Below the pieces are notes generated by a model that was given only the letters and a program-made list of their open reading frames with translations, had not been told where the DNA came from and made no database searches. 64,000 bases of DNA from Bacteroidales bacterium (GTDB lineage Bacteria > Bacteroidota > Bacteroidia > Bacteroidales > UBA4417), in contig JAURYB010000172.1 in assembly GCA_030654075.1 (NCBI GenBank), forward strand, positions 3,285 through 67,284, read 5' to 3'. Every line of letters starts with the position of its first letter. The first letter of the stretch is position 1. Below are positions 11,002 to 16,157 of this stretch, piece after piece. The position numbers and the translations under genes were made by a program.

Positions 11002-11045
11002 TTGATACTTATCAACCGATATATTGATATATGTCATTATCTTTG
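11002..11045 (+). promoter_or_regulatory. perfect FNR box TTGATACTTATCAA plus -7 box TATCTTTG upstream of the Crp/Fnr gene
   Basis: TTGAT-N4-ATCAA at 11002-11015. TAnnTTTG-type -7 box at 11038-11045. Palindrome centre lies 29.5 bp before the box, the same spacing as at 13718-13762. Confidence 0.6.
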
Positions 11046-11129: not shown

Positions 11130-11828
11130 GTGAATCAATATACTCAATATATAAAAGGATGCAGTTCATGCAAAGACAAAGCTGAAATATTCAGTTGTTT
11201 GTGCCAGACCGAGCTAGACCAGATTGATGAAAAACGTATTGAAGTGCATTTTAAAGCGGGTGAACTTATCTTTAAGCAAGGTACTCCCAATATGCATTTC
11301 CTGTGTTTAACCCAAGGTAAAGTTAAAACGTATATTGAAGGCTATAACGATAAAAATCTTATCCTGGGTATTGTTAAACCTGTCGAATATATTCTTGGAC
11401 CTGGAATTTATGCTGACCAGATGCATCACTTTTCGGCTATGGCTATCGAGGATTCAGTCGCATGCCTTGTTGACCTGGTTACGTTTAAGTCTCTCATCCG
11501 GAATAATCCTGATTTTGCGGAAGATTTTCTAAAAAAAATCAGCCTGCAATCAATTTATAATTACGAACTTTTCATCAGCCTTACACAAAAGCAAATGCCA
11601 GGGCGAATTGCCGATGTATTGCTTTACCTGAAAGACAAAGTTTACGAATCCAATCCATTCCGTACTTCGCTTTCGAGGCAGGATTTAGCTGATATGTCGG
11701 GTATGTCGAAGGAAAGTGCCATTCGTATCCTAAGGGAGTTTAAAGACGAAGGTATTATTCAGGTGAATGGCAACGATTTCGAGATATTAGATACTGAACA
11801 TCTTAGTAAGATCAGTCAAACAGGATAG
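11130..11828 (+). CDS. Crp/Fnr-family transcription regulator with N-terminal Cys cluster (FNR-like)
   Basis: 232 aa, GTG start. cNMP-binding-type beta-roll, C-terminal HTH (SRQDLADMSGMSKESAIRILREF). N-terminal C11-x2-C14-x8-C23-x-C25 (GCSSCKDKAEIFSCLC). Confidence 0.85.
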   Translation: MNQYTQYIKGCSSCKDKAEIFSCLCQTELDQIDEKRIEVHFKAGELIFKQGTPNMHFLCLTQGKVKTYIEGYNDKNLILGIVKPVEYILGPGIYADQMHHFSAMAIEDSVACLVDLVTFKSLIRNNPDFAEDFLKKISLQSIYNYELFISLTQKQMPGRIADVLLYLKDKVYESNPFRTSLSRQDLADMSGMSKESAIRILREFKDEGIIQVNGNDFEILDTEHLSKISQTG

Positions 11829-11910: not shown

Positions 11911-11977
11911 CTTATCACTTATCACTTATCACTTACACCTTATCACTTACACCTTATACCTTACACCTTATCACTTT
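11911..11977. repeat. period-7 degenerate tandem array (CTTAYMM, about 9.5 units)
   Basis: cttatca cttatca cttatca cttacac cttatca cttacac cttatac cttacac cttatca ctt. Overlaps the stop codon of the S41 peptidase gene. Confidence 0.85.
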
Positions 11978-13581
11978 CCCTGTGATAATTTCTGGAACAA
12001 GGAGTCATTCTTAATTACATCTATAGCCTGATTCAATTCATCGTCTGTAGTGCTGATCATTTGGAAATAAGCATTCATATTAAATAAATTCCTGGCAATA
12101 AGTGCTTTTAGAACTGTTTTTATTTGTAGCCCTGATGCCTCCAGATCCTTATCGTTGCGAGGTAAATCTTTCGATTCAGCAAAAGCTACAAATTCATCCA
12201 GCAATTTCTGGTCATCGGTAAATCCTTTTTTAAATGCTTGTATATCAGGATACGTTTTGAGAAGGTCTTTGCGCCTGGTCTCAATATATTGCACTGTAAA
12301 TTCGTTCAGCAGCGATTTGCGAAAAACATCAGTGTAATATTTCGAAGCAAATGCAGTATCCATAGGAATAAAGTAGTCGGGCATAATTCCACCACCTCCG
12401 TAAACAACACGTTTATTCTGGGTAAAATACCTCAGTGAATCAGGGAATTTAATACTATCGGCATGGTACATTTCACCATGTTTTAATCGTTTGTAAAGGT
12501 CATCACCATATTCTTCTTCACCATCAGCATATGATTTTTGGATACAACGGCCCGAGGGAGTATAATAACGTGCTGTTGTAATACGAACCATTGAGCTATC
12601 GGGAAGCATGTAAGGCCGCTGAACCAGGCCTTTCCCAAATGACCGCCTTCCGATAATCAGGCCACGATCCCAATCCTGCACAGCGCCTGAAACAATTTCA
12701 GAAGCTGACGCTGAACCTTCATCAATCAGGACTACCAGTTTGCCTGTTTCGAATGTACCGCTAGAGGTGGCAATAAAATCCTGTTTAGGGCTACGTACAC
12801 CTTTAGTATATACTACAAGTTTACCAGCAGGTAAAAATTGGTCGGCCAGATCAAAAGCTATATTCAGATAACCACCTGAATTTCCCCGAAGATCGAAGAT
12901 AAGGTTTTTCATCCCCTGCTTTTTTAAAGCATTGGCAGCGTCAATAAATTCGTCTGTTGAAGTGGCTGCAAAACGCGAAAGTTTTATATATCCTATATTA
13001 GTGGTAACCATATAGGAAGCATCTATACTGTTAAGTGGAATTTTGTCCCGTGTTATGGTATAGTCAATCAGTTCTTTATGCCCTTTGCGGTAAATGGCAA
13101 CATCTACTTTGGTCCCTCTTGGACCACGCAGGTGGTCGAGTACGAATTGGGTAGTCAGTTTTTTGCCAAAAGCATCTTCACGGTTGATCTTGATGATTTT
13201 ATCTCCAGCCAGAATACCTAATTTATCGGAAGGCCCGCCTGGAACAGGCGAAATAACTAATATTGTATCCTTATAAATCTGAAACTGAATACCAACGCCA
13301 TCAAAGTTTCCGACCAATGGCTCATTGGTTTTTTCAACTTCATCTTTTGAAATATAAACGGAATGCGGATCAAGTTCTTTCAGTACCGCTACAATTGCTT
13401 CTTCAGTTAACTTTGGCTGATCAACATCTTCGACATAGTAATAGTTTATTAACTGCATCAGTGTGTTGAACTTCATTGTGGTTGACTTAGGATCAACCGA
13501 CTTTTGTTTTGTTTGAGCTGAGGAGCTTATGATTATGATGAGAAGAAAGAATACTATCAGGGAATATTTAGCTAATTTCAT
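11971..13581 (-). CDS. S41-family C-terminal processing (tail-specific) peptidase
   Basis: 536 aa. Signal peptide, PDZ-like segment (GGPSDKLGILAGDKIIKIN), S41 catalytic region (VLIDEGSASASEIVSGA...RRSFGKGLVQ). Confidence 0.85.
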   Translation of the reverse strand: MKLAKYSLIVFFLLIIIISSSAQTKQKSVDPKSTTMKFNTLMQLINYYYVEDVDQPKLTEEAIVAVLKELDPHSVYISKDEVEKTNEPLVGNFDGVGIQFQIYKDTILVISPVPGGPSDKLGILAGDKIIKINREDAFGKKLTTQFVLDHLRGPRGTKVDVAIYRKGHKELIDYTITRDKIPLNSIDASYMVTTNIGYIKLSRFAATSTDEFIDAANALKKQGMKNLIFDLRGNSGGYLNIAFDLADQFLPAGKLVVYTKGVRSPKQDFIATSSGTFETGKLVVLIDEGSASASEIVSGAVQDWDRGLIIGRRSFGKGLVQRPYMLPDSSMVRITTARYYTPSGRCIQKSYADGEEEYGDDLYKRLKHGEMYHADSIKFPDSLRYFTQNKRVVYGGGGIMPDYFIPMDTAFASKYYTDVFRKSLLNEFTVQYIETRRKDLLKTYPDIQAFKKGFTDDQKLLDEFVAFAESKDLPRNDKDLEASGLQIKTVLKALIARNLFNMNAYFQMISTTDDELNQAIDVIKNDSLFQKLSQGK

Positions 13582-13717
13582 AAATTCCTAAGGGATTAAA
13601 ATTGAATTTCAAAATTACATGATTTATCGCATAAATTGTGGCAATTGTTTGCCATTCGTTATGCATTTAACAATTTTTCTCATTTCATATCGTTTATAAT
13701 GAATATAAATAGATAGC

Positions 13718-13762
13718 TGTGATATAAATCACAAAATGGAGCTTAAAAAGCGCGTAAATTTG
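13718..13762 (+). promoter_or_regulatory. perfect CRP/FNR-type palindrome TGTGATATAAATCACA plus -7 box TAAATTTG upstream of the second cytochrome/barrel operon
   Basis: 16-bp palindrome at 13718-13733 (core TGAT-N4-ATCA). TAnnTTTG box at 13755-13762. Centre-to-box spacing 29.5 bp, giving roughly -42 relative to a TSS a few nt after the box. Confidence 0.6.
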
Positions 13763-13856
13763 CATTAGGTTGAAAATGCCTCAATTGGAGTTAAGAAAGG
13801 CCTTAAATACCTGTAAACTATTTTCACAGGAAATCTTCCTTTTAATTTTTTTATAA

Positions 13857-14240
13857 ATGAAAACACGAATAATTAGTGCATTGGCCGGATTGATACTTTT
13901 AAGCATTTATCTAACTTCCTGCAAGCATGAACCGGAACTCCCGCCAGGCACACCCATAGTTTGTTTCGACCAGGATGTTATGGGCATTATTAATTCGAAT
14001 TGCAATGTACCCGGTTGCCACGGTGATGGTGAAGGGCCTTCTCTATCTACTTTCGAAGATGTTTCCAGCTATGTCACCGCAGGCAAACCAATGCAAAGCG
14101 AGCTTCATAAAGTAATTACGGCACACTCGAACCTGGAGGGGTTAATGCCTCCCAAACCAAAATCAGCACTTTCCAGTTCACAGATTGATATTATAAGCAT
14201 CTGGATATTGCAAGGCGCGACTCATACCACCTGTCCCTAA
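13857..14240 (+). CDS. small PSCyt1-like lipoprotein with CX4CH motif
   Basis: 127 aa. Lipobox YLTSC, motif NCNVPGCHG (C-x4-CH), tail LMPPKPKSALSSSQIDIISIWILQGA matching the PSCyt1-type ending. Confidence 0.65.
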   Translation: MKTRIISALAGLILLSIYLTSCKHEPELPPGTPIVCFDQDVMGIINSNCNVPGCHGDGEGPSLSTFEDVSSYVTAGKPMQSELHKVITAHSNLEGLMPPKPKSALSSSQIDIISIWILQGATHTTCP

Positions 14241-14356
14241 ACTCATTGCGATGGTTTTCAAGCGGGATCTACTGTTCCATATACAAATATTTAACAGTAT
14301 TTTGAACAATTGATATATAAATGTATTTTAATAGAATGCTAATCAAAAAATCTTCA

Positions 14357-14743
14357 ATGAAAACAAAAATAAAAGTATTCCTTGCATCTGTATTGGCACT
14401 TACACTTGCGATCAGCGGTTGTTATTATGACAATGAAGAAGACTTATACCTGGGAAGCAGCGCCTGTGATACAACAAATGTAACCTACCTCAATACTACT
14501 TCAGGTGAATTAGCTATTGAGAAAATTTTTGAACATAATTGTAATTCATGCCATAGTGGAAGTACTCCATCCGGGAATATTAAGACTGACAATTATGAGG
14601 CTGTAAAAGCCAATATTATCCGGATCAGAGGAGCAATTAACCACCAATCAGGCTTTCAGGCAATGCCTCAAGGTGGCAGCCTGTCATCCTGCGACCTGAC
14701 GAAAATTGATATCTGGATCAGAAAAGGGATGCTGAACAATTAA
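14357..14743 (+). CDS. small haem-c lipoprotein, PSCyt1-like
   Basis: 128 aa from ATG 14357 (MKTKIKVFLASVLALTLAISGC lipobox). CNSCH motif, tail AMPQGGSLSSCDLTKIDIWIRKG. The track start at 14321 adds 12 non-signal residues. Confidence 0.65.
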   Translation: MKTKIKVFLASVLALTLAISGCYYDNEEDLYLGSSACDTTNVTYLNTTSGELAIEKIFEHNCNSCHSGSTPSGNIKTDNYEAVKANIIRIRGAINHQSGFQAMPQGGSLSSCDLTKIDIWIRKGMLNN

Positions 14744-14766: not shown

Positions 14767-15204
14767 ATGAATAAAAAACTTAAAATCGGGCTTATAATAC
14801 TGGCAATCGGACTTGTAGCTGCAGCCCTTGTTTGGAAATTTTATGTAAACAAACCTCATGATGATATAGAAAAAGCAACCGCGGCTTATTCTGTTTCGAC
14901 CGAAGAAATTTGGAATAAGTACAATACCGACCGGAGAACAGCCGATTCGTTGTACAATGACCAGGTGATTGAAGTTACCGGCAGCCTGAGCCGTATCGAT
15001 AAAAATGACACATTGGTATCGGCCATATTTGTAATGGCGGCTGACTCAATGTTTGGTGATAAAACCATTGCCTGTCAGATGTATAAAAAGCACAATGAAG
15101 AAGCGGGCACATTAGTGGTTGGCTCAAAAGTTAAAATTAAGGGTGTTTGTATCGGATTTGATGATACCGATATTAAATTTAATAAATGTTCAATAGTCAA
15201 ATAG
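14767..15204 (+). CDS. N-terminally anchored OB-fold protein (tRNA_anti-like family, from memory)
   Basis: 145 aa. TM helix IGLIILAIGLVAAALVW, then a pattern typical of Bacteroidota tRNA_anti-like/OB proteins (YNDQVIEVTGSL...GSKVKIKGVCIG). Confidence 0.5.
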   Translation: MNKKLKIGLIILAIGLVAAALVWKFYVNKPHDDIEKATAAYSVSTEEIWNKYNTDRRTADSLYNDQVIEVTGSLSRIDKNDTLVSAIFVMAADSMFGDKTIACQMYKKHNEEAGTLVVGSKVKIKGVCIGFDDTDIKFNKCSIVK

Positions 15205-15242: not shown

Positions 15243-16157
15243 ATGATACGAAATAAAATACTTGCAATCTTCCTGTTTCTCATGGTCTTCAGCGGTCAAT
15301 TATTTGCGCAGGATCTGATGGACATGTTAAAGGATGAGACTCCTAAAACGAATTATGCTTACGCTACTTTTAAAACAACCCGTGTTGTTTTGGGGCAATC
15401 GGTTGAAAGCCCTGCTAAAGGTACCCTTCAGTTTTTGGTTGAGCACAACTTTGGCAAACTGAACGAAGGAGCATATGCGATGTGGGGATTGGATCAATCC
15501 ACAGTAAGGCTGGGATTGGAATATGGGATTAAAGATTGGTTGAGTGTCAGTATTGGCAGAAGTTCCTATCAAAAGACATTTGATGGATCGGTTAAAATTA
15601 AATTACTCAGGCAGAGTACAGGTGCCCGGAAAATGCCGTTTTCCATGTCATTATATGGAGGCACCATGTTAAATTCATTAAAATGGACAGATCAAACCCG
15701 CAATAATTACTACACTTCGCGCTTGTCTTATCTGGCACAAGTACTGATCGCAAGAAAGTTCTCGAATGCTTTTTCTGTACAATTAACACCTACTTATATT
15801 CATAAAAACCTGGTCCCACTGAGGACCGATCGCAACGATCAATTATCAATTGGCATTGGGGGAAGGTACAAAGTTTCACAGCGCACCAGTTTAAATGCAG
15901 AGTATTTTTACCAGATTCCCGGATTTATTAATTCCGATCCGGTTTCAGGTTCTGAATACCGTAATTGCTTATCAGTAGGAGTTGATCTTGAAACCGGCGG
16001 CCATGTATTCCAGTTCCGGCTTACCAACGCGCAGCCAATGTTTGAACGTGCTTTCATTACTGAAACAACCAGCAAGTGGACGGATGGAGGTATTTTCCTT
16101 GGTTTTACAATAAATCGTGTATTTACTATTATTAAGCCGTCCGTTCCGAAAGAATAG
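15243..16157 (+). CDS. predicted outer-membrane beta-barrel protein (DUF5777-like), paralog of 9505-10443
   Basis: 304 aa. Signal peptide ending FAQ, amphipathic strand pattern, barrel-closing GFTINRVF near the C-terminus. Alignable along its length with the 312-aa ORF. Confidence 0.6.
   Translation: MIRNKILAIFLFLMVFSGQLFAQDLMDMLKDETPKTNYAYATFKTTRVVLGQSVESPAKGTLQFLVEHNFGKLNEGAYAMWGLDQSTVRLGLEYGIKDWLSVSIGRSSYQKTFDGSVKIKLLRQSTGARKMPFSMSLYGGTMLNSLKWTDQTRNNYYTSRLSYLAQVLIARKFSNAFSVQLTPTYIHKNLVPLRTDRNDQLSIGIGGRYKVSQRTSLNAEYFYQIPGFINSDPVSGSEYRNCLSVGVDLETGGHVFQFRLTNAQPMFERAFITETTSKWTDGGIFLGFTINRVFTIIKPSVPKE

Follow-up and report, generated by a model that had tools for sequence, protein, structure and literature searches.

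A CRP-type operator with class II-like promoter geometry upstream of a cytochrome-like lipoprotein/DUF5777 operon and its probable reader in an uncultured Lentimicrobiaceae genus

The element at 13718 and its surroundings

An inverted repeat of the Crp/Fnr kind stands upstream of a four-gene operon of cytochrome-like lipoproteins in a 64-kb stretch of Bacteroidales DNA (the window, meaning the whole stretch analysed), and a Crp/Fnr gene is found about 2 kb away. Is that neighbour the protein that reads the repeat, as the original prediction had it, or is the reader to be sought elsewhere in the genome? The repeat, TGTGATATAAATCACA, occupies positions 13718-13733 and has no strand of its own. 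By direct reading it is a CRP-type GTGA-N6-TCAC site, with arms TGTGAT (13718-13723) and ATCACA (13728-13733) placed around the centre ATAA (13724-13727). It had been described as a 16-bp perfect palindrome, and this is true of the 6-bp arms, which invert perfectly, but not of the whole element, because the 4-bp centre is not self-complementary (the reverse complement reads TGTGATTTATATCACA). Taken as 5-bp half-sites lying 6 bp apart (TGTGA-TATAAA-TCACA), the inverted repeat is a perfect match to the CRP-type TGTGA-N6-TCACA, unlike the FNR-type TTGAT-N4-ATCAA, whose half-sites are not found at 13718, both halves having G there (GTGAT/ATCAC).

Downstream, a Bacteroidota-type −7 box (TAnnTTTG), TAAATTTG, lies on the plus strand at 13755-13762 and begins 22 bp past the GTGA...TCAC 14-mer. 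The dyad centre of the operator at 13725.5 is located 29.5 bp before the first base of this box, in agreement with the predicted spacing, and the ATG of the first lipoprotein gene at 13857 follows the box by 94 nt, close to the 95 bp given earlier. Direct reading also bore out the likeness to a second site in the window, TTGATACTTATCAA (11002-11015), which has the same TGAT-N4-ATCA core and whose centre again sits 29.5 bp before a −7 box, TATCTTTG (11038-11045). The 94-nt leader contains a small hairpin, CCTGT-N11-ACAGG (13810-13830), kept only in the closest relative, G052.

The four genes downstream, all on the plus strand and here called module 2, were assigned from their open reading frames and Pfam matches. 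The first (13857-14240) encodes a 127-aa lipoprotein with a weak cytochrome-c-like match (CX4CH), the second (14321-14743) a 140-aa CxxCH lipoprotein with a weak cytochrome-c match, the third (14767-15204) a 145-aa N-terminally anchored OB-fold protein (tRNA_anti-like), and the fourth (15243-16157) a 304-aa DUF5777 beta-barrel (PF19089, E = 1e-93) in conserved synteny. Divergent from module 2 is the gene of an S41 C-terminal processing peptidase (11971-13581, minus strand; open reading frame, Pfam and synteny), a conserved neighbour of the module with its own −7 box, TAATTTTG, at 13610-13617 of the minus strand. The Crp/Fnr gene of the window, encoding an FNR-like regulator (11130-11828, plus strand; open reading frame and Pfam), is divergent from module 1, which consists of a CxxCH lipoprotein, a DUF5777 barrel and a cytochrome c and is paralogous to module 2.

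By count alone the operator word does not stand out. One exact match was found in the 64-kb window, rising to three when up to one mismatch is allowed (1.95 expected), and the window count was not above that of shuffles. TGTGA-N6-TCACA occurs exactly seven times in the 5.77-Mb genome versus about 6.7 expected from base composition. The argument for the element therefore rests on its conservation and on its combination with the −7 box. Only two of the 53 GTGA-N6-TCAC sites in the genome have a TAnnTT[TA]G box starting 20-45 bp 3' of the dyad centre, and both show the same 29.5-bp spacing. The composite GTGA-N6-TCAC-N22-TAnnTTTG matched 39 times when the 45 genomes of this uncultured Lentimicrobiaceae genus were searched; in the same genomes the reversed pattern matched once, and about 2.6 matches are expected from composition. 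The only other exact TGTGAT-N4-ATCACA in the genome (C151:16714-16729) falls in sequence that appears to be non-coding, ahead of a release-factor-like open reading frame, and no −7 box was seen at class II distance from it.

Conservation of the site and the neighbouring FNR-like regulator

An ortholog of the first lipoprotein is present in 21 of 24 genomes of the same genus, identities within the genus being 41-94%, and the gene order S41, module 2, rhomboid is retained in most of the 18 loci examined. The upstream region of module 2 was sought in 36 genomes, of which 35 could be classified, the region of G054 being cut by a contig end. Conservation upstream of orthologous operons had been put forward earlier as a check on the site, and it was indeed observed: GTGA/TCAC with at most one mismatch precedes module-2 orthologs in 23 of the 35 genomes. 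Within these upstream regions nGTGAT-N4-RTCACn and the −7 box following it are retained while the flanks diverge. Measured from dyad centre to box, the offset is 29 in eight genomes, two of which have degenerate sites; one genome has 31 and another 45, and among further genomes three have 30 and one has 29.

Alignment of 26 intergenic regions revealed a series of conserved islands comprising the S41 −7 box, CATTTAACATTTTTT, TGAATATAAAT, the GTGA/TCAC half-sites and the module-2 −7 box, and promoters without the site still have their −7 box and the other islands. Between aligned promoters with and without the site no clear difference in a −33 TTG element was detected, none being evident in either group, and a scan for sigma-70 promoters and terminators returned nothing informative. 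Two of the islands, CATTTAACAATTTTTC (13664-13679, no strand assigned) and TGAATATAAAT (13700-13710), are conserved in about 25 genomes, also where the GTGA operator has been lost, and may represent a second operator or an upstream promoter element. Since the 13718 element is conserved, though not above chance by count, the comparison supports its being a real and functional CRP/FNR-family operator, that is, a putative binding site set in a class II-like promoter geometry.

In the FNR-like protein the N-terminus contains the motif C-x2-C-x8-C-x-C, one Cys aligns with C122 of E. coli FNR, and the closest solved structures are 2GAU and Aliivibrio FNR. Its recognition helix contains SKESAIR, within a GMSKESAIRIL stretch that 20 of 21 orthologs share unchanged (the remaining one reads GMSKESVIRIL), and position 180 is Lys. 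Two boxes, at 11002-11015 (box A) and 11024-11037, belong to its own gene; they read TTGATACTTATCA[AG] and TTGATATATGTCAT, respectively, and the second abuts the −7 box. These boxes are of the TTGAT type in 21 relatives, with TTGAT left halves in 13 to 15 of the 15 closest ones (the exceptions are one TTGAC and one ATGAT), and no box with G in both halves occurred among the relatives compared. Right half-sites of the boxes differ at their outermost position from relative to relative: box A can have A, G, T or C there, and one right half reads ATCAC. Over 11002-11045 the two TTGAT-type boxes are spaced 22 bp apart in a region of which about 110 bp are nearly invariant across the genus, an arrangement that suggests combined activation and autorepression shared with the divergent module 1.

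The original prediction placed module 2 in the regulon of this neighbouring gene. If the FNR-like regulator read both the TTGAT box at 11002 and the GTGAT site at 13718, module 2 would be part of an oxygen-responsive regulon, a reading that accommodates the common core and spacing of the two sites, their position within 3 kb of each other in G000 (the genome of this window) and six relatives, and the paralogy of modules 1 and 2, which makes co-regulation plausible. However, the FNR-like gene adjoins S41 and module 2 in only seven genomes, all of one sub-clade (G000, G001, G014, G043, G052, G053 and G057); in the remaining genomes it lies on a different contig or at a distance of megabases, with module 1 always as its divergent partner, and the 13718-type site persists where the genes are unlinked. 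Of the 12 genomes in which module 2 is without the site, 11 also have the FNR-like gene (Fisher p = 0.34), and therefore no association with the site is seen. Furthermore, the TTGAT left halves of its own boxes and the lack of any box with G in both halves do not match the 13718 site, and a matrix derived from the FNR-like boxes gives the majority of module-2 sites less than 5 bits. Linkage, the regulator's own boxes and its distribution, combined with the existence of a paralog that tracks the site better (see below), make regulation of module 2 by the neighbour improbable. The FNR-like gene is thus probably not the factor for the 13718 site, and the 29.5-bp geometry seems to be a trait of Crp-family activation within the lineage and not the mark of one regulator. 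Cross-binding of the site by the FNR-like protein is possible, because Lys180 could contact, and might accept, a G and because its own right half-sites vary at the outermost position.

A CRP-type regulator gene upstream of DUF2892

Seven Crp-family proteins are encoded in G000, two of them with Arg at the position of CRP R180. One of the two is a 207-aa protein encoded on contig C192 (54049-54672; hereafter the C192-type regulator), whose recognition helix G-T-A-R-E-V-I-S-R is CRP-like in that the equivalents of R180, E181 and R185 are as in E. coli CRP. Among its orthologs (44-100% identity) GTAREVISR is invariant, as is one Cys in GE(M)CIMSF. The stop codon of the regulator gene is followed by 51 bp, then by TGTGACCATTATCACG, then by the −7 box TAATTTTG at 29.5-bp spacing, and finally by the gene of a 67-aa DUF2892/YgaP-like protein. 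This regulator-site-DUF2892 arrangement recurs in 13 relatives with TGTGA...TCAC invariant, and the offset to the −7 box is 29 in 11 of the 13 and 30 in the other two, the same geometry as at 13718.

A weight matrix was built from the DUF2892-promoter sites alone and was scored on the module-2 sites and on the whole genome. The 13718 site reached 20.7 bits under this matrix, compared with a mean of 20.9 for the matrix's own sites, and 21 of 24 module-2 sites scored 12-21 bits. Genome-wide in G000 the DUF2892 site ranked first and the 13718 site second, and these two matches are the only ones with a −7 box at that offset. The composite motif leads to the same pair of targets: 28 of the 30 composite loci fetched precede either module 2 or the 67-aa DUF2892 gene, and in 15 of the 17 DUF2892 loci among them a C192-type regulator gene precedes DUF2892.

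The two exceptional composite loci have other genes downstream. One (L149, G042:C5:36254-36297) stands before a gene for a multihaem cytochrome of more than 490 aa in a species whose module 2 is without the site, which suggests that regulon members turn over among cytochrome genes. In the other (L125, G002:C10:27611-27654) the match falls inside a long terminator-like hairpin before the gene of an HMA-domain lipoprotein and may be a chance match.

In G022 the C192-type regulator, the site, DUF2892 and module 2 are contiguous in that order. In two complete relatives, G005 and G057, a distance of about 1.6 and 0.46 Mb, respectively, separates the C192-type regulator from module 2, so regulation would act in trans. 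Across the 35 classified genomes the regulator and the module-2 site occur together in 21 and are both absent from eight (G006, G012, G016, G017, G019, G024, G047 and G055). The site is present with the regulator not found in two genomes, G004 (88% complete) and G041 (74% complete), many of the compared genomes being fragmented, incomplete metagenome-assembled ones. The reverse combination occurs in four: G021, which has a C192-type regulator of 82% identity and a module 2 without the site, and G002, G042 and G044, whose regulators are divergent. The co-occurrence is significant (Fisher p = 0.0007), although the test ignores shared ancestry and is therefore supportive, not decisive. The site has thus been lost from module 2 mainly in genomes without a C192-type regulator.

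Based on these comparisons, we consider it likely that the 13718 site is the operator of the C192-type CRP-family regulator, encoded elsewhere in the genome, and that it serves in class II-type activation. The second protein with Arg at the R180 position (G000 contig C71, 146491-147255) was rejected as a reader. Its helix, S-R-E-S-V-S-R, and the presence of a TGTGA-N6-TCACA element, TGTGATATAGTTCACA, at its own promoter would fit a site such as that at 13718; however, of 24 relatives only G021 has a close ortholog, and this genome is without the module-2 site, so that ownership of the site by this paralog appears extremely unlikely. TGTGATATAGTTCACA itself (C71:146545-146560) is located 5 bp before a TATCTTTG box of the paralog gene, which encodes an R-E-S-R helix and a Cys-rich N-terminus, and this placement looks like autorepression.

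Could both the C192-type and the FNR-like protein occupy the 13718 site, integrating oxygen with another signal at least in the sub-clade where the genes adjoin? The common TGAT-N4-ATCA core would allow it, cross-recognition between E. coli CRP and FNR after one or two residue changes is established, and in G020, where a half-site reads ATGAT, the site scores 15.4 bits under the FNR-like matrix versus 10.1 bits under the DUF2892-site matrix. Nevertheless, the outer G of both half-sites is retained in most genomes, as expected for a reader with R180 alone, and we regard such dual control as very doubtful.

Mode of action, recognition and meaning

For the C192-type regulator, preferred here as the reader, we infer binding, activation, the transcription start and a signal in the following manner. 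The invariant primary target would be the 67-aa DUF2892/YgaP-like membrane-protein gene directly downstream of the regulator gene. On a signal, the dimer would bind TGTGAY-N4-RTCACA; at module 2 this places it 29.5 bp before the −7 box and at about −41 from the expected transcription start (as judged from the position of the box), with the promoter-proximal half-site predicted to occupy the place of a −33 element. Bound in this position, it would activate the four-gene module-2 operon in the manner of a class II CRP/FNR activator. We favor class II-type activation because the 29-30 bp spacing is fixed in two unrelated operons and because the site overlaps the −33 position. The same overlap of the proximal half-site could also serve repression, in which the C192-type protein would occlude the −33 region of both module 2 and DUF2892 and release it on a signal, and promoters without the site, which retain the −7 box and the islands, may be active without the factor. 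However, the spacing is retained in about 35 promoters of the two operons, and a fixed spacing is typical of face-of-helix contacts in activation and unnecessary for occlusion. Repression thus seems unlikely, and activation, argued from geometry only, is the more probable of the two modes.

Homologs of the C192-type regulator were found in 103 of 301 sampled Bacteroidota genomes, and the sites beside them vary with the recognition helix. Where relatives with an R-E helix have a palindrome, 12 of 13 carry GTGAC/GTGAT-type sites with a GTCAC right arm, usually just past the regulator stop, and a DUF2892 match is found downstream in 9 of these 12; the exception (L176) reads TGTAAC...ATCACT. Among relatives with an R-V helix, each of the ten in which a palindrome occurs shows GTAAC in one arm or in both. 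Residue 181 (Glu or Val) therefore covaries naturally with the half-site base (GTGAC or GTAAC), which parallels the classical Glu181 specificity mutants of E. coli CRP. A paralogous branch of this DUF2892-linked Crp subfamily (G000 C4:72921-73436; L090, L091, L096 and L171-L191) has Val in place of Glu at 181 and TGTAAC-N4-GTTACA sites, which in the same-genus loci L090, L091 and L096 precede DUF2892 and/or rhodanese-like genes.

A comparison with known systems places the 13718 element among CRP-family operators. At class II CRP/FNR promoters of E. coli the site lies near −41.5 and reads TGTGA-N6-TCACA for CRP or TTGAT-N4-ATCAA for FNR. The 13718 site resembles them in its dyad geometry, in its half-sites, which are those of the CRP consensus, and in its overlap with an upstream promoter element at a fixed distance to the downstream one; the C192-type regulator resembles E. 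coli CRP in its contact residues R180, E181 and R185. By contrast, the promoter is of the Bacteroidota type, with −7 TAnnTTTG, and in the alignment the regulator is without the cAMP-binding Arg82/Ser83 context of CRP, so its effector is presumably not cAMP. The closest solved relative of the C192-type regulator is PDB 3DV8, a structural-genomics Crp/Fnr-family protein (E = 7.5e-19 over residues 13-207), a likeness drawn from sequence only, and E. coli CRP is the next structure match (E = 2e-10). The FNR-like system of the window has in common with 13718 the protein family, the TGAT-N4-ATCA core and, at box A, the 29.5-bp spacing; it differs by T instead of G at the specificity position, by a K-E-x-x-I-R helix and by its N-terminal Cys cluster.

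A further parallel is offered by HcpR, for which wTGTGA-N6-TCACAw was predicted in Desulfovibrio and GTAAC-N4-GTTAC for HcpR2 (Rodionov et al. 2005, PMC1274295). The same study reported that residues 180 and 181 correlate with half-site bases, R180 going with G at this half-site position (Rodionov et al. 2005, PMC1274295). As in HcpR regulons, CRP-like motifs appear here to be read by FNR/CRP-family proteins, with the regulator gene beside its main target. The systems are likened without a claim of orthology, since the targets of the C192-type regulator would be DUF2892 and the cytochrome-lipoprotein/DUF5777 operon and not hcp, and its GTAAC-reading relatives have Val181, not Pro. Our search of the literature on DUF5777, on DUF2892 with Crp and on TAnnTTTG with Crp yielded no described counterpart, apart from one incidental entry in an NnrR-regulon table.

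Taken together, the 13718 element is better explained as an operator of an ordinary kind, that of the CRP family, belonging to a small trans-acting regulon that would link DUF2892 with the cytochrome-lipoprotein/DUF5777 module. Proximity probably pointed to the wrong regulator: the likely reader is not the product of the Crp/Fnr gene 2 kb away, and the present reading corrects a tempting case of guilt by proximity. It would define a compact regulon of two operons for a CRP-family subfamily that is uncharacterised and common among Bacteroidota. It would also be the first lead to the regulation of DUF2892 and of the DUF5777 barrel and its cytochrome-like lipoproteins, both of them families of unknown function. 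With its strictly conserved spacing of 29-30 bp, this promoter could serve as a model for class II-type activation with the unusual Bacteroidota sigma factor. More tentatively, one might speculate that the DUF2892-linked Crp regulators, which roughly one in three of the sampled Bacteroidota possess, make up a so far unstudied subfamily of sensors, marked by an invariant effector-domain Cys and possibly responsive to thiols, sulfur or redox state, which in this Lentimicrobiaceae genus has recruited the cytochrome-lipoprotein/DUF5777 module, and a multihaem cytochrome in one species, into an otherwise single-gene regulon. If true, this would tie envelope electron-transfer proteins to the signal of the C192-type regulator.
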